Translations under genes and position numbers: made by a program | NCBI GenBank assembly: GCA_963665325.3 | Contig: OZ224045.1 | Coordinates: 1,824,001 to 1,888,000 of the forward strand | Source of the DNA: Alphaproteobacteria bacterium | Lineage (GTDB): Bacteria > Pseudomonadota > Alphaproteobacteria > Bin95 | DNA: 64,000 nt | Direction of reading: 5' to 3' | Shown: one piece after another, positions 49,899 through 62,790 of the stretch | Numbering within the stretch: the stretch's first letter is position 1 | Layout of the letters: each line of letters begins with the position of its first letter | Notes under the pieces: generated by a model | Told to the model about the DNA's origin: nothing | Databases searched by the model: none | What the model saw: the letters and a program-made list of their open reading frames with translations, nothing else

Positions 49899-50866
49899 GG
49901 ACCATCGCGCTGCGCGACGCGCTCCGGGAAGCGTTGCATGAGGAAATGGCCCGCGATGACAGCGTGTTCGTCATCGGCGAGGACGTGATCGCGCATGGCG
50001 GCCCCTACACCGTCACCCAGGGCATCGTGGACAAGTGGCCGGAGCGCATCTTCGAGACGCCGATTGCCGAGGCGGGCATAGTCGGTCTCGGCGTCGGCGC
50101 CGCACTCGCCGGCATGCGCCCGGTGGTCGAGATCATGTATGTCGATTTCATCACCTGCGCGATGGACGAGGTCGTCAACCAGGCGGCCAAGATGCGCTAC
50201 ATGACCGGCGGGCAGGCGAGCGTGCCCATCGTCATTCGCCTGCCTTGCGGCCCGGCCCGGCTGGTAGCGGCCCAGCATTCGCAGATCATGGAATCCTGGT
50301 TCATGCATGTGCCGGGCCTCCAGGTGGTGGCCCCGAGCACGCCCTACGATGCCAAGGGCCTGATGAAGACGGCGATCCGGAGCCCCGACCCGGTGGCGTT
50401 CTTCGAATACAAGGCGCTCTATGTGAGCGAGGGCGAGGTGCCGGAGGAGGACTATGTGATCCCGTTCGGCAAGGCCGACATCAAGCGGGAAGGCGAGGAC
50501 GCCACGGTCGTTGCCATCGGCGGCATGGTGCCCCGCGCGCTGGAAGCGGGCATCGCGCTTGAGGACGAGGGCTACGACATCGAGGTCGTGGACCCGAGGA
50601 CGCTTGCCCCGCTCGACATGGAGACGATCTGCGAATCCGTGCGTCGGACGGGCCGCGTGGTGGTCTGCGAGATGGACTCCTCCTTCGCCGGCACCGGCGC
50701 AGAGATCGCTGCGGCGCTCGCCGAGCAGTGCTTTCACGATTTGCGCGCGCCGATCGTGCGGGTCGGCAGCCCGCATGTGCCGATGCCGTTCGCCGAGGAA
50801 CTGGTGAACGTCACCGTGCCCGATGCCAAGGCAGTCGCGAAGGCGGTGCGGAAGGTCATGGCCTGA
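49895..50866 (+). CDS. 2-oxoacid/acetoin dehydrogenase E1 beta
   Basis: GEDV, TPIAE, AAQHSQ, DPRTLAPLD. Confidence 0.93.
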   Translation: MRTIALRDALREALHEEMARDDSVFVIGEDVIAHGGPYTVTQGIVDKWPERIFETPIAEAGIVGLGVGAALAGMRPVVEIMYVDFITCAMDEVVNQAAKMRYMTGGQASVPIVIRLPCGPARLVAAQHSQIMESWFMHVPGLQVVAPSTPYDAKGLMKTAIRSPDPVAFFEYKALYVSEGEVPEEDYVIPFGKADIKREGEDATVVAIGGMVPRALEAGIALEDEGYDIEVVDPRTLAPLDMETICESVRRTGRVVVCEMDSSFAGTGAEIAAALAEQCFHDLRAPIVRVGSPHVPMPFAEELVNVTVPDAKAVAKAVRKVMA

Positions 50867-52035
50867 TGGCGGTCCGTCTCAGGCTCGCCGCGCTCGGCCA
50901 CACCATGGAGCGCGGCAAGGTCGTGGAGTGGTATGCGACCGAAGGCGCTCCGGTCGAACAGGGCGCGCCGCTCTATTCCGTCGAGACCGACAAGGCGACG
51001 GTCGATGTCGAGGCGCCGGCCGGCGGCGTGCTGCTGCGCATCGACGCCGATGTGGACCGGGAATACCCGGTCGGCGCCACGCTCGCCTGGATCGGCGAGA
51101 GCGGCGAGGACCTGCCGGAGAAGACGGACGAAACGGTCGCCGCGCCGGCGGCAGTATCGGACGACCAGCGGGTGACGCCCGTCGCGCGGCGTCTTGCGGA
51201 GCGGCGCGGCGTGGACGCCGACCGCTTGGCAGGCACCGGCCCCGGCGGGCGCGTCACCAAGGAAGACGTGCAGCGCGCCACCGACGCGGGCACCGCGCCG
51301 CCGCTGGAGAAGAAGGCGTCCGGCGAGCCCGAGCACGATGTCATCCCGCTGACCCCCATTCGGCGGGTGACGGCCGAGCGCCTCAGCGCCCATTGGGCCG
51401 GCGCGCCGCAGGTGACGGAAGGCATCGACATCGACATGACCGACATGCGCGCCTTCCGCAATGCCAGCCGCAGCGAATGGCGCACCGCCTACGGCCTCGT
51501 CCCCTCGCTCAACGACATCCTGCTGAAGGCGGTCGCGGCCGCGCTGGAGGCGCATCCGGCACTCAACTCGGCCTTCGTCGATGGCGAGGTCCACCGCTAT
51601 CGGGAGGTCAATCTGGGTGTGGCGGTCGATGTCGAGGACGGGCTGGTGGTGCCGGTGCTGCGCAATGCTGCAAAGCTCGGCCTCGGCCAGATCGCGACCG
51701 CCGCAGCCGATCTCGCCGAGCGAGCCAAGACGGGCAAGCTCTCCGTGCCGGATTTCGAGGGCGCGACCTTCACGGTCAGCAACCTGGCGGCGCTCGGCGT
51801 GGACTGGTTCACCCCGGTGCTGAACCCGCCGCAATGCGCCATCCTCGGCGTCGGCAGGATGCGGCGCATGCCCGCCGTCGTGCGGAACGAGGTCGCGGTC
51901 CGCGATATCGCCACTTTCGTTCTCACCTTCGACCACCGCGCGCTCGACGGCGCCCCCGCCGCCCGCTTCCTCGCAAGGCTCAAGCGCCTGCTGGAATCGC
52001 CGGATCCGTCGCTGTTCTCCGGGCCAGGCGGTTAA
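50866..52035 (+). CDS. Dihydrolipoamide acyltransferase E2
   Basis: Lipoyl ETDKA, GTGPGGRVTKEDV, DHRALDG. Confidence 0.92.
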   Translation: MAVRLRLAALGHTMERGKVVEWYATEGAPVEQGAPLYSVETDKATVDVEAPAGGVLLRIDADVDREYPVGATLAWIGESGEDLPEKTDETVAAPAAVSDDQRVTPVARRLAERRGVDADRLAGTGPGGRVTKEDVQRATDAGTAPPLEKKASGEPEHDVIPLTPIRRVTAERLSAHWAGAPQVTEGIDIDMTDMRAFRNASRSEWRTAYGLVPSLNDILLKAVAAALEAHPALNSAFVDGEVHRYREVNLGVAVDVEDGLVVPVLRNAAKLGLGQIATAAADLAERAKTGKLSVPDFEGATFTVSNLAALGVDWFTPVLNPPQCAILGVGRMRRMPAVVRNEVAVRDIATFVLTFDHRALDGAPAARFLARLKRLLESPDPSLFSGPGG

Positions 52036-52066
52036 CACGCACCGCATGCGGCCCTCGCGCTGAACG

Positions 52067-53098
52067 ATGCGGGCGAAGCAGCTAATCCACATTGTGAGCT
52101 GCCATGCTGAGGGTGAGGTGGGGGATGTCATCGTGGGCGGGGTGGCGCCGCCGCCGGGGGCAACGCTCTGGCAGCAGAGCCGGTTCATCGCGGAGGATGG
52201 CTGGCTGCGCGACGTGGTGCTGAACGAGCCGCGCGGCGGCGTCTTCCGCCATGTGAACCTGCTTGTGCCGCCGAAGGACCCGGCCGCGGCCATGGGCTTC
52301 ATCGTCATGGAGCCGGCCGACACGCCGCCCATGTCCGGCTCCAACGCCATATGCGTCGCGACGGTGCTGCTGGAGACCGGCATCGTGGCGATGGAGGAGC
52401 CGGAAACCCGCTTCCTGCTGGAGGCGCCGGGCGGGCCGGTCGAGGTCGTGGCGTCCTGCTGCGACGGCAAAGCGGAGCGGGTGCGGATACGCAACGTCCC
52501 CTCTTTCGCCGACCGCCTCGACGCGCCGCTCGAAGTCGAGGGCCTCGGCACGCTCAAGGTCGATACCGCCTATGGCGGCGACAGCTATGCCATCGTGGAT
52601 GCCCACGCACTCGGCTTCGCGCTCCGCCCGGACGAGGCGCGCGACCTCGCTGCCACCGGCATGCGTATCGTGCGGGCAGCAAACGAGCAGATCGGCTTCC
52701 GCCATCCCGAGCAGGCGGACTGGGCGCATATCTCCTTCTGCCAGTTTGCCGCCCCGCTCCAGTATCGCGAGGGCGTTCCGCACGGCCGCAATGCTGTCGC
52801 CATCCGGCCCGGCAAGATCGACCGCTCGCCCTGCGGCACCGGCTGTTCCGCCCGGCTCGCAACCCTGCATGCAAGGGGCGTTCTCGGCACGGGCGACGCC
52901 TTTGTCGGCGTGTCTCTCATCGACTCCCGCTTCGACTGCCGGATCGAAAGCGAGACGACGGTGGGCGGCCGCCCCGCCATCCTGCCCTCGCTCGCCGGCC
53001 GCGCCTGGATCACCGGCACGCACCAGGTCACGGTCGATCCCGACGATCCCTGGCCGCGCGGCTACCGCCTCAGCGACACCTGGCCGGACTATTGCTGA
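52067..53098 (+). CDS. Proline racemase superfamily protein (Ser/Cys active-site pair)
   Basis: [24 protein letters not shown]. Confidence 0.9.
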
Positions 53099-53179
53099 GC
53101 GGCGTGGCCGTAGAGACCCCCCGCAGATGTCATGAATTGTCATGTTTTGCATGCGCCGGGCGTATATTCCGTAGTCGTT

Positions 53180-53359
53180 TCAGGCATGAAGCTGTCCGCT
53201 CTTCGGCTTCCTCCCGCTTGCATTCACCGTCGCCCCGGCTTCCGAGCCGGAGCCCCCGCTTCCGACGCCGTCGAGACAGCGGGCGAGGGCTTCGGCGGCA
53301 GGCGCCAGCCTTGCGGCCAGCTTCGCCGCCAGTCCGGGGCGGGGGTCGGTTGCGGTCAT
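53180..53359 (-). CDS. Putative 59-aa small protein inside copy A
   Basis: AAGGAAGAGGAGA SD upstream of ATG; MTATDPRPGLAAKLAARLAPAAEALARCLDGVG... Confidence 0.35.
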   Translation of the reverse strand: MTATDPRPGLAAKLAARLAPAAEALARCLDGVGSGGSGSEAGATVNASGRKPKSGQLHA

Positions 53360-53611
53360 CGGGTCTCCTCTTCCTTGTCGGTCCGGGAGCGGGCCGGCGG
53401 TTCCCTTTGCCGCGCGCGTTTCGCGCGCGGGCGTGCGTGCGCGTCGGCGCCGGCGCGGTTCGCGCGCCTGATTGCGCGCGCGAGGCGCAGGGCGCACCTT
53501 TCCTGTCGGCTTCTCGGGGGGTTTCAAAAAGGTGGCGCTGCGCAGCACCGGGGAAGCGGCTCCGGATGCCGCCTTCCCGATACCAGTCTAACACATTTTC
53601 TCACAGATCAA

Positions 53612-53637
53612 GAACATTAAGTGAACAATACAAGAAA
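53612..53637. promoter_or_regulatory. Alphaproteobacterial LexA (SOS) box with a third half-site
   Basis: GAAC-ATTAAGT-GAAC-AATACAA-GAAA in an AT-rich patch; extended -10-like TGTTAGACT on the minus strand at 53585-53593. Confidence 0.7.
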
Positions 53638-53750
53638 ATTCTAAAATGTCCCGTTCAAGCCGAACACCAGCCCCGAATTCGTCGCCCCGGCTTCCACGGG
53701 AACCTGGGTCCTCGCCGCTCGGGGGCGGGGACAGGTGGGCGCCGGGGCGG

Positions 53751-54368
53751 CTATTGCGGACCGGTCTCCCGTCCGAGCAGCAGGCGGAGGCCGAGGCCGC
53801 CGAGGATGAGGGCGGCGGCGCGGTCGATATATCGTTTCGCGCGCATATAGCGTCTCGCGACGGCCTCCGTGCTCATGCAGAAGGCGAGCGCCGAATAGAA
53901 GACGACTTCCACGAGGAAGTGATTGGCGACGATGAACGCGCTGTCCCCGACGCCGAGGCCGGCCGGAAACACGGTGACGAGGACGGCGGCCGCGAAGAGC
54001 ACGGACTTCGGGTTGAGCAGGTTCACCAGGAAGCCTTGCCGGAAGGCGCGCTTCGCCGGCGCGGCTCTCGCCTCCGCCGGTGCGGACGAGTCCCTCCACA
54101 TCCGCCAGGCGAGCCAGATGAGATAGGCGGCGCCTGCGATCTTTGCCGCCGTATGGACCGCCGGGAACAGCCGGAAGACAGCGCCAAGGCCGAGCAGCGC
54201 CATTCCGGTCCACGCCGCCGCCATGGCGCCGAGGCCGATGCCAACCGCGACCCCCGCCCTTCGTCCCGCGCTCAGCGAGGTCTGCACCGCCATCAGCAGC
54301 GCCGGCCCCGGACTGGCGATCGCGGCCGCCAGCACGAGGTTGAAGGCAAGTATCTGTTCCAGCGTCAT
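53751..54368 (-). CDS. LysE/RhtB-family exporter
   Basis: SPGPA, GAAYLIWL, NLLNPK. Confidence 0.9.
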   Translation of the reverse strand: MTLEQILAFNLVLAAAIASPGPALLMAVQTSLSAGRRAGVAVGIGLGAMAAAWTGMALLGLGAVFRLFPAVHTAAKIAGAAYLIWLAWRMWRDSSAPAEARAAPAKRAFRQGFLVNLLNPKSVLFAAAVLVTVFPAGLGVGDSAFIVANHFLVEVVFYSALAFCMSTEAVARRYMRAKRYIDRAAALILGGLGLRLLLGRETGPQ

Positions 54369-54411
54369 GCGCCTTCCCTTTGCCGGTCCGACGGTGCCGC
54401 ATCCTTTGCGG

Positions 54412-54891
54412 TCACAGGTTCCCGTCCGTCCAGCGGCTCATGACCGTCCGCTCCTCGACCCCGTATCCGAGCCCTTCGTAAAACCGGCGCACCGCTTCGT
54501 TGTCCTCGCGGATCATCAGCATGACCTTGGGCGCTCCGGCCTCCGCGAGCCAGGCTTCGGCATGACGCATCAGCTTCTCGCCCAGACCCTGCGAGCGGTG
54601 CTCGGGCGCGACGGCGACATAATAGACCCAGCCCCTATGGCCTTCATATCCGGCCATGACGCTGCCCGCGATCCGTCCGCTGCTCTCTCTGGAGACTGCA
54701 ACGAATATGTCGGACGAGGCATTGGCACGTGCGCTCCCGATGTCTCGGAGCGGGTCGTTCCAGGGCCGCACCAGCCCGCAGGCGCGCCAGAGTTCCGCGA
54801 CCGCCTCCTCGTCTCCGTCGCGGATCGGGCGGATTGCGAACCCGGCCCTGCTCCCGCTTCCTTCGCTGCCCGGCATCGCCCCCTCGCTCAC
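54412..54891 (-). CDS. GNAT acetyltransferase (YpeA-like)
   Basis: LVRPWNDP, GYEGHRGWVYY.AV, GLG, FYEGLGY. Confidence 0.9.
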   Translation of the reverse strand: MSEGAMPGSEGSGSRAGFAIRPIRDGDEEAVAELWRACGLVRPWNDPLRDIGSARANASSDIFVAVSRESSGRIAGSVMAGYEGHRGWVYYVAVAPEHRSQGLGEKLMRHAEAWLAEAGAPKVMLMIREDNEAVRRFYEGLGYGVEERTVMSRWTDGNL

Positions 54892-54994
54892 ACCCGTCGC
54901 GGCCCGATATTACGGCAGATACCGTCCACTGGCGCGCGGGCGCCGTTCGCGGCATCATCCGACCCTTCCCCATTGCCATCCGGAGGTCGGTCCC

Positions 54995-56212
54995 ATGGCT
55001 CGGCGCGGCATGAGTTTCGGCGTCTTCCTCGCTCCCTTCCATGCGCTCGGCGAGAACCCGACGCTTGCCATGGAACGGGACATGGAGCTGATCGAGTGGC
55101 TCGACCATCTGGGCTATGACGAGGCCTGGATCGGCGAGCACCATTCCGCCGGCTGGGAGATCATCGCCGCGCCGGAGATCTTCATCGGCGCCGCCCTCCA
55201 GCGCACCAAACACATCAGGCTCGGCTCGGGCGTGACCTCCTTGCCCTACCACCACCCGATGCTGGTGGCGCAGCGCTTCGTCCAGCTCGACCATATGAGC
55301 CGGGGACGCACCATGCTCGGCTGCGGGCCGGGCGCGCTGGTGACCGACGCCTACATGATGGGCATCGCGCCGACCGACCAGCGCCGGCGCATGATGGAGT
55401 CGCTGGAGGCCGTCATCGCGCTTCTGGAGTGCAAGGAACCGGTGACGATGGAGACCGACTGGTTCACGCTCCGGGAAGCGCGGCTGCATCTGGCGCCCTG
55501 GACCGAGGGCCGCTTCCCCATCGCCGTCGCCTCGACGATCACCCCCTTCGGCATGATGGCCGCCGGGCGCCACGGCATCGGCGTGCTGTCCATCGGGGCT
55601 GGCATTCCGGGCGGGCCGGAGATGCTGGCGAAGCAGTGGCAGATCGCGGAGGAGGAGGCCGCGAAGCACGGCAAGACCATGGACCGCAAGGACTGGCGGG
55701 TGGTCGTCAACATGCACCTTGCGGAGGACGACGAGGAGGCGCTGCGCCAGGTGAAGGCCGGCGAGCGGCTTGAGACCGTGACCTATTTCGAGGAGACGCT
55801 CGGCCGCCCGCCCGGCCGCGCCGACGATCCCGTGCGCGACGGCGTGAAGATGGGCACGACCCTGATCGGCTCGCCGGAGACCGCAATCAAGGGCATCGAA
55901 TACCTCCTCGAACTTTCGAAGGGCGGCTTCGGCGGCATCCTCTTCCGGGCGAACGAATGGGCGAACCGGGAAGACACGATGAAGAGCTACGAGCTGTTCG
56001 CCCGTTATGTGGCGCCTCGCTTCCAGGGCTCGATGGACACGCTCTACGGCTCCAACGCCTTCGTGCGCGAGAACCGGCTGCGCGTGCTGGAAGGCAATGT
56101 CGAGGCGGTCAAGCGCGCCTTCACCGATACCGGCCGCGAAGTCCCCGCCGGCTTCGAGGACCGCACGCTGGGCGCCGGCGACCTGCCGAAGGACAAGGAC
56201 GCGGCAGAGTAG
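54995..56212 (+). CDS. LLM-class flavin-dependent oxidoreductase
   Basis: FGVFLAPFH, WIGEHHSAGWE, SLPYHHP, QLDHMSRGR. Confidence 0.9.
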   Translation: MARRGMSFGVFLAPFHALGENPTLAMERDMELIEWLDHLGYDEAWIGEHHSAGWEIIAAPEIFIGAALQRTKHIRLGSGVTSLPYHHPMLVAQRFVQLDHMSRGRTMLGCGPGALVTDAYMMGIAPTDQRRRMMESLEAVIALLECKEPVTMETDWFTLREARLHLAPWTEGRFPIAVASTITPFGMMAAGRHGIGVLSIGAGIPGGPEMLAKQWQIAEEEAAKHGKTMDRKDWRVVVNMHLAEDDEEALRQVKAGERLETVTYFEETLGRPPGRADDPVRDGVKMGTTLIGSPETAIKGIEYLLELSKGGFGGILFRANEWANREDTMKSYELFARYVAPRFQGSMDTLYGSNAFVRENRLRVLEGNVEAVKRAFTDTGREVPAGFEDRTLGAGDLPKDKDAAE

Positions 56213-56264
56213 CGGTCACGGGGCTCGCACCATCCCCCTGTCGTGAACGGCGGACACAGCACAT

Positions 56265-57059
56265 ATGCCTCTGGCGCGGATCGAAGGCGGCGACATCCAT
56301 TACGAGGAGAGCGGCGGCGGCGCGGCGCTGGCGATGCTGCTGCCGCAAAGCGGCGGGCCGGTCGGCGTGCGTCCGTTCCTCGACCGGATGGCGGAGTGCT
56401 TCCGGGTCGTCCGCTACGATCAGCGCGGTACCGGCCGGAGCGCGCCGGTAGCAGCGCCCGAGGACATGACCATGACGGGCCGCGCCGGAGAGCTTGCCGG
56501 GCTTCTCGATGCGCTCGGGATCGGGAAGGCGCACCTGTTCTGCCATTCCACCGGCTGCGGTATCGGCCTTGCGTTCGCGGCCTCCCGCCCGGAGCGGGTG
56601 GCGGGGCTGGTCCTGGCGAATCCGTGGAGCCATGGCGACGTGCATCTGACGACCATGCAACGCCTGCGGGTGGCCGCCGCGCGTGCGCTCGACCCCTATC
56701 GTTATGCCTGGTTCAACGCCAGCCTGCTGTTCCCGCCCGACTACCGCCGCGCGCACACCGGGGCGTTCGAGGCGCTGGCAAGCAACGCCGCGCCGCAGGA
56801 CGCCGACGGAATCGAGGCCCGTCTGGAGGCGATCCTGGCCTTCGACGCCCGCCCGCTGGCGCCGGGCCTCTCCTGCCCCGTTCTGATAGCGACCGCTGCC
56901 GACGACCAGCTGATGCCGCCCTGGTTCGGCGCGGAGCTGGCGGCGTCGATTCCCGGCGCGGCCCATCTGGCGCTCGACGGCGGCGGCCATATGCTGCCGG
57001 AGACGCGCGCCGATGCGTTGGGCGAAGCGGTTATTGAATTCCTCGACGGCGTCGCCTGA
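56265..57059 (+). CDS. Alpha/beta hydrolase (RutD-like)
   Basis: YDQRGTGRS, CHSTG nucleophile elbow, GGH. Confidence 0.8.
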   Translation: MPLARIEGGDIHYEESGGGAALAMLLPQSGGPVGVRPFLDRMAECFRVVRYDQRGTGRSAPVAAPEDMTMTGRAGELAGLLDALGIGKAHLFCHSTGCGIGLAFAASRPERVAGLVLANPWSHGDVHLTTMQRLRVAAARALDPYRYAWFNASLLFPPDYRRAHTGAFEALASNAAPQDADGIEARLEAILAFDARPLAPGLSCPVLIATAADDQLMPPWFGAELAASIPGAAHLALDGGGHMLPETRADALGEAVIEFLDGVA

Positions 57060-57084
57060 CCCGCCCGGACTCGCGGCCCTCCGC

Positions 57085-58473
57085 TCACGCCTCCGCCACT
57101 TCCTCGCTCAGGCGCACGACCACCGAATCGAGCCGGTCGACCGCCTCGTCGATCTCGCTGCGGTCGATGCAGAGCGGTGGCGCCACCGGGACGACATGGC
57201 CGCCGCGGCCGAGCATCCCGTGTTCCCGCATGAGCCGCACGACGCGCCCGTCCAGCCCGAACTCCTTCGGGAACTGCGCCCGCGTCCCGCGGTCCTTCAC
57301 CAGCTCGACGGCGCAGAGCAGCCCCATGCCGCCGCGCACATCGCCCACGATTTCGTGCTTGCGAAGCGTCTGGAGGCGCTCGAACAGGTAATCGCCCATC
57401 TCGCGGGAGCGCGCCGCCATGTTCTCGCCTTCCATGATGTCGAGATTGGCGAGCGCGGCGGCGCAGGAGGCCGGATTGCCCCCGAAGGTGATGAGATGCT
57501 GGAAGACCCGCTCCTCGCCGCCGGAGAAGGCGTCCGCGACCTTGCCCGTCGCGATCGTCGCGCCAATGGGCAGGTAGCCGCTGGTCAGTGCCTTGGCGAC
57601 GGTGAAGATGTCGGGCTTCACGCCCCACTGCTCCATCGCGAACATCTTCCCCGTCCGGCAGAAGCCGGTGATGACCTCATCGGCGATTAGCAGCACGCCG
57701 TAGCGGTCGCAGATCTCGCGCACCTGGGGCCAATAGTCCGGGTGCGGCACATGGATGCCCGCCGCCGCCGAGATCGGCTCGCCGATGAAGGCCGCCACCG
57801 TCGCCGGGCCCTCGTGCAGGATCGCCCGCTCGACGTCGCGGGCGCATTCCATGCTGCACGAGCCCGCGTCCGCGCACAGGTGGCAGCGCCAGGACGCCGG
57901 TTGGGCCACATGGATATTGCCCGGCACGAGCGGGCCGAAATGCATCGGCACGCTGCCGCCGCCCGGCCCGCCGCGCCCGAGGCTGGTGCAGGCGAGCGTG
58001 GCGCCGTGATAGGAGCCGCGCCGGGAGAGTACCTTCCAGCGCGTCGGCTCGCCGTTCAGGTGGTGGTAGTTCTTGGCGAGCTTGAGCGCCGTCTCATTCG
58101 CCTCCGAGCCGCCGCTCACGAAATAGACCCGCGCCGCTTCGTCCTGGCTGAGGCGGGCGAGACGGCCCGAAAGCTCCGCCGTTGCCGGGCTCACCGTGTC
58201 GCTCGGCGTGAAGGCAAGCTCCAGCATCTGGCGATAGACCGCATCGGCGATCTCCTGCCGGCCGTGGCCGATATTCACCAGCCAGAGCCCCGACATGGTA
58301 TCGAACCAGCGCTCCCCCTCGCCGTCCACCACCCACACCCCCTTGCCATGGGTGACGACCTGAAGGCCGGTCTTGCCCTCGACATTCCCCGCCGGACGGG
58401 AATGCGGCCAGAAATGATCCCTGGCGTCGGCGCGCGCCTTGTCGAGGTCGGGTGCGTTGGCGAAATCGGGCAT
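57085..58473 (-). CDS. Class III PLP aminotransferase
   Basis: [39 protein letters not shown]. Confidence 0.93.
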
Positions 58474-58640
58474 GGCGGGGGCCTCCCTGCTGGCGGCGCG
58501 GACTGTCGGCGAAAATTGCCGGGGGTTCGGGGACGCGCCGGGCCCGGCCCGCGCTCCGCGCTCCGTCGGCGTCCGCGCAGACTGTACCACCCGCCCCGAA
58601 GCCCGAACAGCGCACGTTCCCGTTCCGGACGGAGGAGGCC

Positions 58641-59275
58641 GGGGCCCACTCCAGCGGGATGTCATGAAGTGTCATGTTTCGTCATGGTCCGGTCTCCGCC
58701 TCGGCCGTTTCTGCGGATTCGGGGTCGTGCGCTCGCGGGGCATCGCGCCTCCTTTTCGCCGTCGACAGTCCCGGACACTCCCGCGGCGGCGGAGCGTCCC
58801 TGTTTCGCGCGTAACACGCGCGGGCGGGCGGGCGTGTCAGCGCCGGCGCGGTTCGCGCGCCTGATTGCCCGCGCGCCTGTGCGCGAGGCGGCGAGGGTCC
58901 ACTCCACCGGGATGTCATGTTTTGTCATGTTCCGGTTTCCATCCCCGGGCGTTCGCGCCGGTCCGCGGGTCGTCCATCGTGCATCGCAGCCTCCTTTCAT
59001 CACCGGTTTCCTCCGCTCCCCGGGCCGGGGGCGCGTCCCCGCCTCACGCGTACCGTGTGTGCGGGCCTGCGGGCGGGCGCGCAAGCCAAGCCAGGCGCAG
59101 GGCGCACCCGTCCCGTCCGCTCGCGCCGGGGAATTTGCGGCGCCCGGCCATCGCTTCCCTGCGCAGAAAAGCCGAAAGGCGACCCCGGACGCCGCCTCTC
59201 CCTACGCCCATAATAGCACAGAATTCCTCAGGCCGAGCATGATTTAGGAAATATTACGGGATAATTGTGAACGAA
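58641..59275 (-). repeat. Intergenic element family, copy B (two tandem units)
   Basis: Direct repeat CCACTCCASCGGGATGTCATG...GTCATGKTCCGGTYTCC at 58646-58697 and 58899-58940; 29-bp block 58840-58868; 16-bp block 59093-59108; hairpin homolog 59176-59202. Confidence 0.8.
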
Positions 59276-59430
59276 CCGCTGTAAGTCGTCTCAATCCAGG
59301 TCCTTCCGCCGGGGACGGTCTTCTCGGCGGCGTGTCCCGTGGGAGTCGGTGCGGCAAGGCTCGGCATACAGAAGGAACCTTCGCTCCGAGCCGCAGCTCT
59401 CGAGCGACTACCACATCCGTATGTACTTCG

Positions 59431-59910
59431 TTAGAACCGTTCCATTCTCACGTTAAGAAGGTCGTTAGGAAATGCACGAATCAAAAGAGCCTCCACTGCT
59501 GATATGTGATTGTGTTCCACTTCGTAGGCACTGATGTAGGACGCCAGATCATACAACCTAGTTGACATCTTTTTGACTCTTCGGTGTTGTCTATCTGCTC
59601 GGTGAAATTCACGATTCCTTACATAAGGATGACTAACCAGAAATACTTTCCTCGTGTCGCTATGGCCGAGGTTTCGGTTAAATGCGTTCTTCGCCTCGAA
59701 CCAAAGGCTTCTCTGCTCAGTTTTCCCAACATATAGGGCGCGACCTCTGCTATCGTAAAATAGGTAAATTCCGCTCGCAGCTTCCAGCGCCTGACGGAGG
59801 CCATTGTTATATCTGTATTCGTCTTCATCAGTTGGAAACAGATCGTATGAGCCATTATTGCCAGTCGGTGTTGCATCAAGGAAAAAGAATTCTACTATGG
59901 GTCTTATCAC
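59431..59910 (-). CDS. GIY-YIG nuclease-family protein (AT-richer, possibly 5'-truncated)
   Basis: GIYLFYDSRGRALYVGKT, VEALLIRAF, LLN; visibly more AT-rich than the flanking genes. Confidence 0.7.
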   Translation of the reverse strand: MIRPIVEFFFLDATPTGNNGSYDLFPTDEDEYRYNNGLRQALEAASGIYLFYDSRGRALYVGKTEQRSLWFEAKNAFNRNLGHSDTRKVFLVSHPYVRNREFHRADRQHRRVKKMSTRLYDLASYISAYEVEHNHISAVEALLIRAFPNDLLNVRMERF

Positions 59911-59994
59911 GCCGTCGCTCCTGAAATGTGCTGCTTGATCGGTTGTGATATTTCCCGAACCCAGGTTCGAAAATGGAGATTCTAAAGCTATTTT

Positions 59995-61080
59995 CTACTC
60001 CGCCGCCTCCGCGCGGAATGCCGGCGAGAAGTGCGGGGCGACTTCGCGGGCGAAGCGGGCCATGACTTCCCGTTGCAGGTCCTTGGGCATGCCGGGCGTG
60101 GCGGCGGAGACCAGGGCGTAGTCGAAGCCGAGCGCGGCATAGCCCCTGAGCCGTTCCACGGCGGTCTCGGGCGAGCCGACAAGGTTCATCTCGCAATAGG
60201 GGCCGAGCTCGTCGGGGTCCGTCATCTTGCGCAGATTGGCGAACATGCGGGAGAACTGCTGGTATTCCTCGATGTTCTCCCAGGGGTTTGCGTCGGCTTC
60301 GTAGTGGTCCGCCTGGATTGCGAAATAGGGCGGGAAATAGCGCCGCGCGAGCTTGGTCGCCTCCTCGTCCGTGTCCGCGATCAGCATCTTTATCGAGATG
60401 GCCTTCGAGCGGTCGGCCCCCGGAGGTGCCTGCTCGTCCCAGGTCCCGAGAATCTTCTCCAGCAGGCGCGCAGGAAATGTGGACAGGCAGAGCGGCGGCA
60501 GGGCGAGACCGGCCATCACGCCGGCGCTCTGCGGGCTGCCAATGGCGCCGTAGAACCTGACCGGCTTGTCCACCGGCTCCGGGCGCAGGCGGACCGGGCG
60601 CGGCACCTTGTAATGGGTCCCATCATGGGTGAATTCCTGTCCCGAGAGGCCCTTGCGGATAATGTTCAGCGATTCCGCGAACCGGCCCCGCGCCTCCGGC
60701 ATGGAGACGCCGTAAGCGTCGTACTCCGATTTCGCCGTGCCGCGCCCGAGGCCCAGATGCAAGGTGCCCCGCGTCAGCGAGTTCAGCATCGCGATCTCTT
60801 CGGCGATGCGCACCGGGTGGTACCAGGGCAGCACGAGCACCGACGTGCCGAGCCCGATATCGGGGCAGAGCGCCGCCACATGTGCCATGAACAGGAGCGG
60901 GCTCGGCGTCGGGTAGTAGTCCGAGAAATGGTGCTCCAGCATCCAGACCGATTCGTAGCCGAGCGACTCGGCGAGCTTCACGTCCTCGATCACCTCGTCG
61001 TACAGCACCTTGTCCGATTTGCGGACATCGGTGGAGGGCGCGGTCTGCACGCCGAAGGTCATGGCTCGGACCGTCGTCAT
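59995..61080 (-). CDS. LLM-class flavin-dependent oxidoreductase
   Basis: LGYESVWMLEHHF, VLPWYHPVRIAEE, GLGRG, VGSPE. Confidence 0.9.
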   Translation of the reverse strand: MTTVRAMTFGVQTAPSTDVRKSDKVLYDEVIEDVKLAESLGYESVWMLEHHFSDYYPTPSPLLFMAHVAALCPDIGLGTSVLVLPWYHPVRIAEEIAMLNSLTRGTLHLGLGRGTAKSEYDAYGVSMPEARGRFAESLNIIRKGLSGQEFTHDGTHYKVPRPVRLRPEPVDKPVRFYGAIGSPQSAGVMAGLALPPLCLSTFPARLLEKILGTWDEQAPPGADRSKAISIKMLIADTDEEATKLARRYFPPYFAIQADHYEADANPWENIEEYQQFSRMFANLRKMTDPDELGPYCEMNLVGSPETAVERLRGYAALGFDYALVSAATPGMPKDLQREVMARFAREVAPHFSPAFRAEAAE

Positions 61081-61127
61081 GGGCGCGGGTTCCTCTTGCG
61101 GGGCGTATCCGGGGCGGCGGGCGGAGG

Positions 61128-62790
<1,663 letters not shown>

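Follow-up and report, generated by a model that had tools for sequence, protein, structure and literature searches.

Correia elements of Neisseria are small, multicopy, intergenic elements that carry promoter motifs, can alter the expression of neighbouring genes and encode no transposase; both they and the miniature inverted-repeat transposable elements (MITEs) have as their defining features inverted repeats at the ends and a duplicated target site. Integron cassettes hold a variable open reading frame (ORF) between conserved, recombination-site-like ends, can stand in tandem and have diverse cargo, and they are usually promoterless, end in an imperfect-palindrome attC site and lie beside an integrase gene and its attI platform. 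In Alphaproteobacteria, RIME, Sm-repeats and REP/BIME are GC-rich, hairpin-forming intergenic repeats like the elements described here, but they measure 40–200 nt and have no promoter, ORF or decamer array. Here we analyze two intergenic elements, copy A (53124–53645 as first delimited) and copy B (58641–59275), in a stretch of 64,000 nt from an alphaproteobacterial genome (GCA_963665325.3, contig OZ224045.1, positions 1,824,001–1,888,000; this whole stretch is called the window below). Both read on the minus strand of the window, and both are copies of an undescribed repeat, present in dozens of copies per genome in a single genus of bacteria associated with sponges.

The source genome (G000) has five contigs, among them C1, C3 and C4, is 100% complete and has a G+C content of 67%; it was compared with 16 other genomes of the same genus, the relatives G002–G016 included. 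A full unit of the repeat consists, in this order, of an AT-rich patch, an extended −10 motif, a first hairpin (H1), a second hairpin, a GC-rich core of ~105 nt that includes a 29-mer, a ribosome-binding site (RBS) with an ORF, two to four boxes phased at 10 nt, and a G-rich tail of 20–30 nt. The unit forms a discrete intergenic block that is missing in related species. A and B belong to a genus-restricted dispersed family with units of ~0.45–1.4 kb, and with a probability of about 0.6 the family is one of self-promoted mobile cassettes, with the boxes and the 29-mer as candidate protein recognition sites. A sequence-only reading of the window had described a multicopy mobile scaffold with exchangeable cargo, which is correct in outline, whereas its further proposals of SOS control and of a structured RNA are partly supported. 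All six modules that it listed, namely the promoter-like patch, the hairpin, the shared 16-mer, the shared 29-mer, the Shine-Dalgarno sequence with a tiny ORF and the terminal TGTCATG boxes, are present where it had placed them; in B, however, they derive from two tandem units (B2 and B1) rather than from one ordered set, and A contains a single unit.

The size of the family is evident at the level of the core. BLAST comparison of A and B with the whole genome gave 200 matches, and a core profile, iterated with nhmmer across all of G000 until convergence, located 68 copies on four of the five contigs, well in excess of what chance would give. A phased CATGAC pair follows within 420 nt downstream of the core in 51 of these copies and at a distance of 517–2981 nt in 14 of the other 17; of the remaining three cores, one has degenerate boxes and two are interrupted by an island. 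Counted independently of the core, there are 99 phased CATGACA clusters in the genome, or 83 arrays if two perfect heptamers are demanded, and the latter have two (22 arrays), three (49) or four (12) boxes. Each of the six letters of CATGAC is kept in 98–100% of the boxes in the 83 arrays and position 7 is A in 90%; conservation spans all of CATGAC, beyond the ATGA stop/start. The spacers between the boxes are AT-rich, and the first of them is AAA in 51 of the 83 arrays. Upstream of the core, a promoter-like hexamer pair scoring at least 8/12 is found in 60 of 67 copies, with the family consensus TTGACC-N15-(TGTGn)TAGAAT; the modal form with a 15-nt spacer accounts for 34 of those 60, and the motif is preceded by a conserved AT-rich patch, TTTGTTC...GAAATAATTCC. 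We term this motif promoter-like, of the extended −10 type, its role being read from motifs alone. In contigs from four DNA runs, all of them short pieces, the core bin is ~10 times as deep as the flanks, in agreement with a multicopy repeat, and no contig of these runs bridged an empty site.

The family is confined to a narrow part of the class. The triple box occurs 36 times in G000 and 7–129 times each in 13 of the 16 other genomes of the genus, and it was found in none of eight genomes from two sister genera and none of 16 from other families of the class (0 of 24 in total); a control with the reversed pattern gave no match in any of the 41 genomes. A prokaryote-wide scan with one genome per species returned at least 102 triple-box stretches, nearly all from metagenome-assembled Alphaproteobacteria or Rhodospirillaceae, several of them labelled as sponge-derived. 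The core profile matched 38 of the 85 loci examined, exclusively in those alphaproteobacterial genomes, and 11 box matches in non-alphaproteobacterial records were without a core. Among viral contigs, none of 12 loci holds the core (ten are box matches in low-G+C contigs and two are distant relatives of the terminase domain at 32% identity), a distant-mode search of a plasmid collection gave no match, to origins of transfer (oriT) or otherwise (best E = 0.2), and Rfam 15 gave none at E up to 1 on either strand of 50000–62000. Searches of the literature on sponge-symbiont or alphaproteobacterial repeats, multicopy small terminases and the two-box 17-mer, supplementary files aside, brought up no description of the repeat, in keeping with the initial impression that no described family fits.

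That units are inserted as blocks, as had been proposed, is apparent from empty sites in five relatives. In G002, G004, G006, G009 and G010, the whole of 53102–53750 is absent, an extent broader than the 53124–53645 first assigned to A, and the genes for a proline racemase and a convergent LysE-type protein lie ~7 nt apart. The same site is filled in G005, G007 and G008 by a longer orthologous unit that is 72–78% identical to A, with flanks at 88–94%; since these three genomes carry the longer unit at this site, A is an old insertion whose cargo later shrank. A second locus, at C3:~720 kb, is empty in G011, carries terminase-type units (see below) in G000, G005 and G013, and holds an uncharacterised 1.9-kb insert in G016. 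For B, the genus-wide comparison gave no clean empty site, because synteny breaks to its right. The box-side end of the units is sharp and lies 20–50 nt past the last box. Within G000, terminase-type paralogues are 87–93% identical, whereas same-site units in other species are 78–80% identical, with flanks at 88–93%; because paralogues are more alike than same-site copies across species, the copies have been homogenised or turned over within genomes.

Clustering of the DNA between core and boxes gave at least four cargo classes, in line with the earlier idea of a conserved scaffold with exchangeable cargo. Short cargo is found in 31 copies (80–360 nt in 28 and 507–2636 nt in three) and comprises a Shine-Dalgarno sequence and a short ORF that often ends ..HDKT* within the boxes; these ORFs are poorly conserved as peptides. 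The longer copies encode full-length genes (152–326 aa, and one isochorismatase). Nine copies, including A, form the ‘MTxDPRP’ class, whose intact members encode proteins of 152–187 aa with no Pfam match and with 88 homologues, every one unnamed or hypothetical and all from the same lineage. The terminase-like class has five scored copies; its 326-aa ORF is intact in five copies, a remnant of it lies in C1:1746072, and a sixth terminase-type copy, C3:720706, was left unscored because its boxes are degenerate. Several smaller classes and singletons complete the set, the intact isochorismatase gene among them. Leader subtype and cargo class are linked, and the promoter therefore travels with its cargo; a rolling-circle unit running from a nick-like block in the core to the tail was ruled out, as leader type is tied to cargo type.

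The N-terminus of the 326-aa protein matches Terminase_2 (PF03592; E = 4.6e-12, 47 bits) at profile positions 2–71 of 141 only, and the protein also matches the PHROG small terminase phrog_51 (E = 1.7e-13); its remainder is acidic and of low complexity, with a basic tail. Its homologues at E up to 0.001 number 331, with 65–100% identity among the matches listed (120 of the 331). All five Terminase_2 matches of G000 lie within units, and the domain occurs in 12 of the 17 genomes of the genus at 2–12 copies each, that is, in 12 of 14 box-positive and none of three box-negative genomes. In the mechanism that we propose, the long version with this protein would be the master form, and the many short units would be its decayed, non-autonomous derivatives. 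A protein would recognise the phased boxes and the 29-mer and use them in copying, recombination or homogenisation; for the boxes, the foremost candidate is the terminase-like protein, although that it binds them is a tentative proposal with the odds against it. The unit promoter may also read through into downstream genes, and the subfamily of A may be repressed by LexA.

An alignment of the units (A1; 64 copies are near full length, 60 were taken, and one with an atypical upstream region was excluded, leaving 59) has 31 invariant columns, most of them within or beside the 29-mer. The 29-mer is also kept in related metagenome-assembled genomes, where its changes are mostly C-to-T and thus wobble-compatible, and its near-invariance across diverged copies and species suggests sequence-specific recognition. 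H1 folds in all 59 aligned copies (mean −15.9 kcal/mol, mean z −2.2, 31 of 59 below −2) and shows the compensatory stem variants GAAGCGGC/GCCGCUUC, GAGGCGGC/GCCGCCUU and GGACCGG/CCGGGUUC, so that the structured RNA surmised from the window is supported for this hairpin and not for the core, which shows no covariation in A1. These properties raise the question of whether the units could instead be regulatory RNA genes or cis leaders (small RNAs, attenuators or dual-function RNAs with mini-ORFs) that were duplicated and kept by selection without being mobile. A promoter followed by a conserved 5' hairpin with compensatory changes speaks for such genes, as does the terminator-like hairpin that stands right after the start in two subfamilies, as H1 in that of B2 and as the second hairpin in that of A. 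Changes in the invariant core helices are mostly C-to-U and retain G-U pairs on the sense strand, which weakly favours a single-stranded sense molecule, and the poor peptide conservation of the short ORFs points the same way. Nevertheless, we consider RNA genes an unlikely explanation in view of the clean empty sites between genes 7 nt apart in relatives, the protein cargo of 152–326 aa conserved across species, the core without covariation, the negative Rfam search and the convergent downstream gene in 20 of 62 copies. Separately, a single fold suggested that the leader segment CCCCUGAGAAAC pairs with the 3' tail; this was rejected, as the duplex energy was −18.9 with a copy's own tail versus −18.5 with the tails of other copies, and the own tail was the better one in 33 of 64 copies.

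In phages, pac sites often consist of phased repeats within or beside the small-terminase gene. The units could accordingly be dispersed packaging signals, in which the terminase-like protein would bind the boxes as a pac-like site and hand the adjacent DNA to a phage or transfer-agent motor, thereby spreading the unit between cells. The Terminase_2 and PHROG matches, the position of the boxes at the 3' end of the terminase-like gene, and the five gene copies behind strong promoter motifs are all compatible with this idea. Yet only half of the domain profile is matched, the remainder of the protein being of low complexity; there is no HK97-type capsid (PF05065 and PF03354: 0) or TerL_ATPase gene in G000 and no large terminase or capsid in the units, the single Terminase_6N gene lies within a Mu-like prophage at C1:~483–485 kb, and none of the 12 viral-contig loci holds the core. 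Moreover, packaging alone leaves the new genomic sites unexplained, and we regard this scenario as improbable, slightly more so than RNA genes. The prophage itself (C1:474000–493000) encodes a Mu portal, Mu F, protease I, GemA, lysozyme and the only Terminase_6N protein of the genome, and its Mu F-like protein of 717 aa carries a C-terminal ADP-ribosyltransferase domain.

The core has a further relation to mobile DNA. In one unit the core hairpin is interrupted by a 40-kb island (C1:777140–817136) that has the direct repeat ACACGCGATAC on both sides, and a 99.7%-identical copy of the island (at least 14.4 kb, from the start of C4 to ~14395) splits another unit. The island carries three tandem tyrosine recombinases, a type I restriction-modification system, GmrSD, an 1808-aa TrwC relaxase and lipopolysaccharide glycosyltransferases. 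Because two island copies interrupt two units, the island uses the multicopy repeat core as its attachment site. Within the core, the terminase subfamily reads GAAGTGCGCCCTCC, which resembles the MOBQ nick consensus NWACCNNTAAGTGCGCCCTYNN given in the section of PMC3832669 cited here; a similar Gram-positive nick consensus is given in the corresponding section of PMC10333310. Compared with the nick-region consensus TAAGTGCGCCCTY in that same section of PMC3832669, the terminase subfamily has AAGTGCGCCCTC and most copies have GTGCGCCCT. That the core is an orphan oriT, with the GTGCGCCCT block as a MOBQ-type nick site at which a relaxase would act in trans to mobilise or recombine units, draws on this likeness, on the place of the block among the most conserved columns of A1, on a GAGAAAC just upstream of it and on the relaxase-bearing island inside one unit, but it is the least probable of the explanations by a clear distance, as G000 has no MobA_MobL (PF03389) or Relaxase-family (PF03432) gene and hence no MOBQ/MOBP relaxase, MobA_MobL occurs in only three of the 17 genomes, the island relaxase is of the TrwC type (MOBF) and not MOBQ, no inverted repeat lies directly 5' of the block (the nearest hairpin ends ~35 nt upstream), the plasmid collection gave no oriT match, and the 9-mer alone is, by our own arithmetic from base composition, expected ~140 times by chance in a genome of such size, the resemblance having been noticed after the fact.

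Several points weigh against the mobile-cassette reading itself. The usual hallmarks of transposition were looked for and, as had been noted from the window, not found: the best inverted 14-mer between a copy's left region and its own right end follows the control distribution (65 copies), GTCATG occurs in only six of 65 left regions, the best direct 16-mer match between a copy's own flanks equals that between flanks of mismatched copies (the 13/16 match flanking the insert at locus A is at chance level), and the proteins of the long copies have no transposase domain. The promoter-side end lies ~70–80 nt upstream of the −35 and is fuzzy rather than fixed to the base, with the left flanks of two terminase-type copies not conserved in relatives, and the block inserted at locus A includes ~100 nt of DNA that is not part of the family. 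The orthologous copies predate speciation, no insertion is shown to be recent, and the similarity of paralogues could be explained by gene conversion. Transcription and strand of the units are deduced from motifs only; a standard sigma-70 scan with spacers of 16–18 nt calls no promoter in the units, because their spacer is 15 nt. In the core, RNAalifold on A1 predicted 17 pairs, none with a double change, and a hand-drawn six-helix model has 83.6% of its cells paired versus 83.0% when shuffled (16 of 500 shuffles reach it) and a covariation score of 0.074 versus 0.068 (18 of 500). With respect to the terminase-like protein, its gene is missing from G009 and G015, both of which have boxes, the co-occurrence of gene and boxes is partly circular, the gene being itself cargo, and the only large-terminase gene of the genome sits in the distant prophage, with no HK97-type capsid found. 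A bolder form of the mobile-cassette reading, to which we assign a small chance, would make the units a new kind of mobile element without a transposase or integrase of its own: a promoter-to-decamer cassette, spread and homogenised via a domesticated small-terminase-like protein that recognises the CATGACA array, possibly with a relaxase-type nick site in the core, and with copies that also serve as entry points for the transfer of neighbouring genes and as landing pads for islands.

The features of A and B are collected in Table 1.

Table 1. Features of copy A and of the tandem units B1 and B2 in the window
Feature	Position	Strand	Remark
A: G-rich tail 3' of the last box, where the element ends ahead of the proline racemase stop	53102–53127	-	missing at the empty sites of G002, G004, G006, G009 and G010
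A: phased array of decamers, CATGACA twice perfect and once degenerate (CATGCA), period 10	53128–53153	-	
A: Shine-Dalgarno AAGGAAGAGGAG (strong) and 59-aa ORF	53181–53375	-	truncated remnant of the ‘MTxDPRP’ cargo protein
A: hairpin of the core, GCGCGCG-AAA-CGCGCGC	53409–53431	-	
A: GC-rich conserved core	53413–53514	-	nhmmer match C1:1877514–1877413
A: near-invariant 29-mer of the core	53447–53475	-	identical to 58840–58868 in B
A: 16-mer of the core containing the GTGCGCCCT block	53483–53498	-	identical to 59093–59108 in B
A: second hairpin and U-run, terminator-like	53524–53549	-	terminator-like site called at 53549–53534
A: first hairpin H1, directly 3' of the presumed transcription start	53550–53579	-	
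A: promoter-like region	53585–53611	-	extended −10 TGTTAGACT (53585–53593), 15-nt spacer, −35-like TTGATC (53606–53611)
A: LexA-type box and AT-rich upstream patch	53612–53650	-	box GTTCACTTAATGTTC (53612–53626)
Non-family DNA also missing at the empty sites	53651–53750	.	includes a GC-rich palindromic repeat (GGCTTCC..GCTCGGGGGCGGGGAC)
B1: tail and three boxes, directly upstream of a class-III aminotransferase gene	58635–58686	-	tail 58635–58659, boxes 58660–58686
B1: Shine-Dalgarno AAAAGGAGG and 23-aa ORF ending ..HDET* within the boxes	58672–58760	-	
B1: 3' two-thirds of the core with the 29-mer (58840–58868)	58802–58886	-	nhmmer match, profile positions 32–107
B2: tail and two boxes	58887–58929	-	tail 58887–58912, boxes 58913–58929
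B2: Shine-Dalgarno AAAGGAGG and 19-aa ORF ending in the boxes	58925–59000	-	read from sequence
B2: 5' part of the core with the 16-mer (59093–59108)	59040–59125	-	29-mer module missing
B2: H1 hairpin followed by a U-run, terminator-like, and extended −10	59174–59218	-	hairpin and U-run 59174–59200, extended −10 TGCTATTAT (59210–59218)
B2: AT-rich upstream patch without LexA-type box	59219–59275	-	

The TGTCATG boxes of A lie at 53128–53144, and a tail similar to that of A (YTYC..GGGGG..YCC) stands 3' of the boxes in most copies. Of the two units in B, B1 (~58635–58886) begins in the middle of the core and is without promoter or hairpins, whereas B2 (~58887–59275) has the promoter motif, H1 and the 16-mer; its partial core is not among the 68 counted by nhmmer.

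GTTC-N7-GTTC is the motif of the alphaproteobacterial SOS (LexA) box, and lexA of G000 has GAAC-N7-GAAC upstream. The suggested SOS control is supported in part: the box is perfect in A, where it abuts the −35, and in two other copies (3 of 68), and it is present with at most one mismatch in 11 of 68, mostly in the cargo class of A, but B has none. The genome holds 119 perfect boxes, which is close to the expectation from base composition by our own arithmetic, and the argument for a LexA box would therefore be one of position and subfamily conservation, not of count.

G007 has the non-family DNA of 53651–53750 at the same site and G008 lacks it; a single partial match to it occurs elsewhere in G000. 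Within this DNA, window positions 53680–53745, between unit A and the LysE-type gene, are occupied by a small palindromic GC-rich repeat (GGCTTCCCCGCTCGGGGGCGGGGAC-like), which recurs at C3:720270–720304 of G000 and in the cargo of copy C1:1918778; as this repeat is present in G007 at the same site but not in G008, it probably represents a miniature repeat family of its own. The longest minus-strand ORF here (253 aa, 53641–54402), at first taken for the neighbouring gene, extends into unit A, and comparison with relatives shows the real LysE-type gene to be a 205-aa ORF at 53751–54368. The last residues and the stop of this gene differ between insert-bearing and empty-site genomes, and in the latter it overlaps the end of the proline racemase gene. 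Another multicopy repeat is a stretch of ~280 bp beside a terminase-type unit (L200:2881–3162, equal to C3:84281–84562 of G000), with at least ten matches in G012 at 90–91% identity. In all four DNA runs, window positions 54937–55203 and 57607–57873 stand at 5–20 times the depth of their neighbours; these bins are probably conserved enzyme motifs common to other community members or paralogues. A run labelled as a viral metagenome contains 0.37 of the sampled words of window 52000–60000, from which we draw no conclusion.

Genes next to the units were called with a crude ORF caller based on G+C at third codon positions for 65 copies. Among the 62 copies for which a downstream gene was called, it points the same way as the unit in 42 and is convergent in the other 20. 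A box ATG shares the frame of the real next gene in 14 copies, which could make the boxes new start codons of downstream genes. This possibility is not supported: in Pfam matches of 13 such genes and the one below B1, the domains (from profile positions 1–23) begin at residues 23–100 of the ORF opened by the box ATG, and the native starts therefore lie further in; by our own arithmetic, an open frame over 20–70 codons is often expected by chance at 67% G+C. The repeat also bears on annotation, as its short ORFs and the N-terminal stretches that box ATGs add to genes are likely miscalled.

If transcribed, the units would put dozens of strong-looking promoters, RBSs and stop/start arrays beside metabolic genes, such as the aminotransferase gene below B, and expression would be rewired across the genomes of an uncultured genus of sponge symbionts. 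The family also accounts for the five Terminase_2 genes that G000 has outside its one identified prophage region and for the multiple copies of such genes in 11 further members of the genus, and it forms a multicopy integration target for the 40-kb island. Since the units insert as a block without any hallmark of known small mobile elements, the mechanism may be new.

Among known systems, the small-terminase and pac modules of phages and satellites share with the units a Terminase_2 DNA-binding domain beside helically phased direct repeats, whereas the units have no adjacent large terminase or capsid gene, occur in 5–12 copies per genome, each within a 1.4-kb unit, and are found in none of the viral contigs. 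The oriT of MOBQ plasmids (RSF1010 family) is approached by the core, which has (A/C)(A/G)GTGCGCCCT and in one subfamily matches the AAGTGCGCCCTY part of the consensus in the cited section of PMC3832669, but the units have no adjacent inverted repeat and G000 no MOBQ relaxase. With integron cassettes the units share the variable ORF between conserved ends, the diverse cargo and, as in B, the tandem arrangement; they differ in having their own promoter and a direct-repeat array at the 3' end and in being dispersed on four contigs (an integron integrase was not searched for). Correia elements are similar in size, copy number, intergenic position and promoter motifs. The terminal inverted repeats and target duplication by which these elements and MITEs are defined were not found in the units, which in addition have an RBS, a phased decamer array and cargo with ORFs as long as 326 aa.

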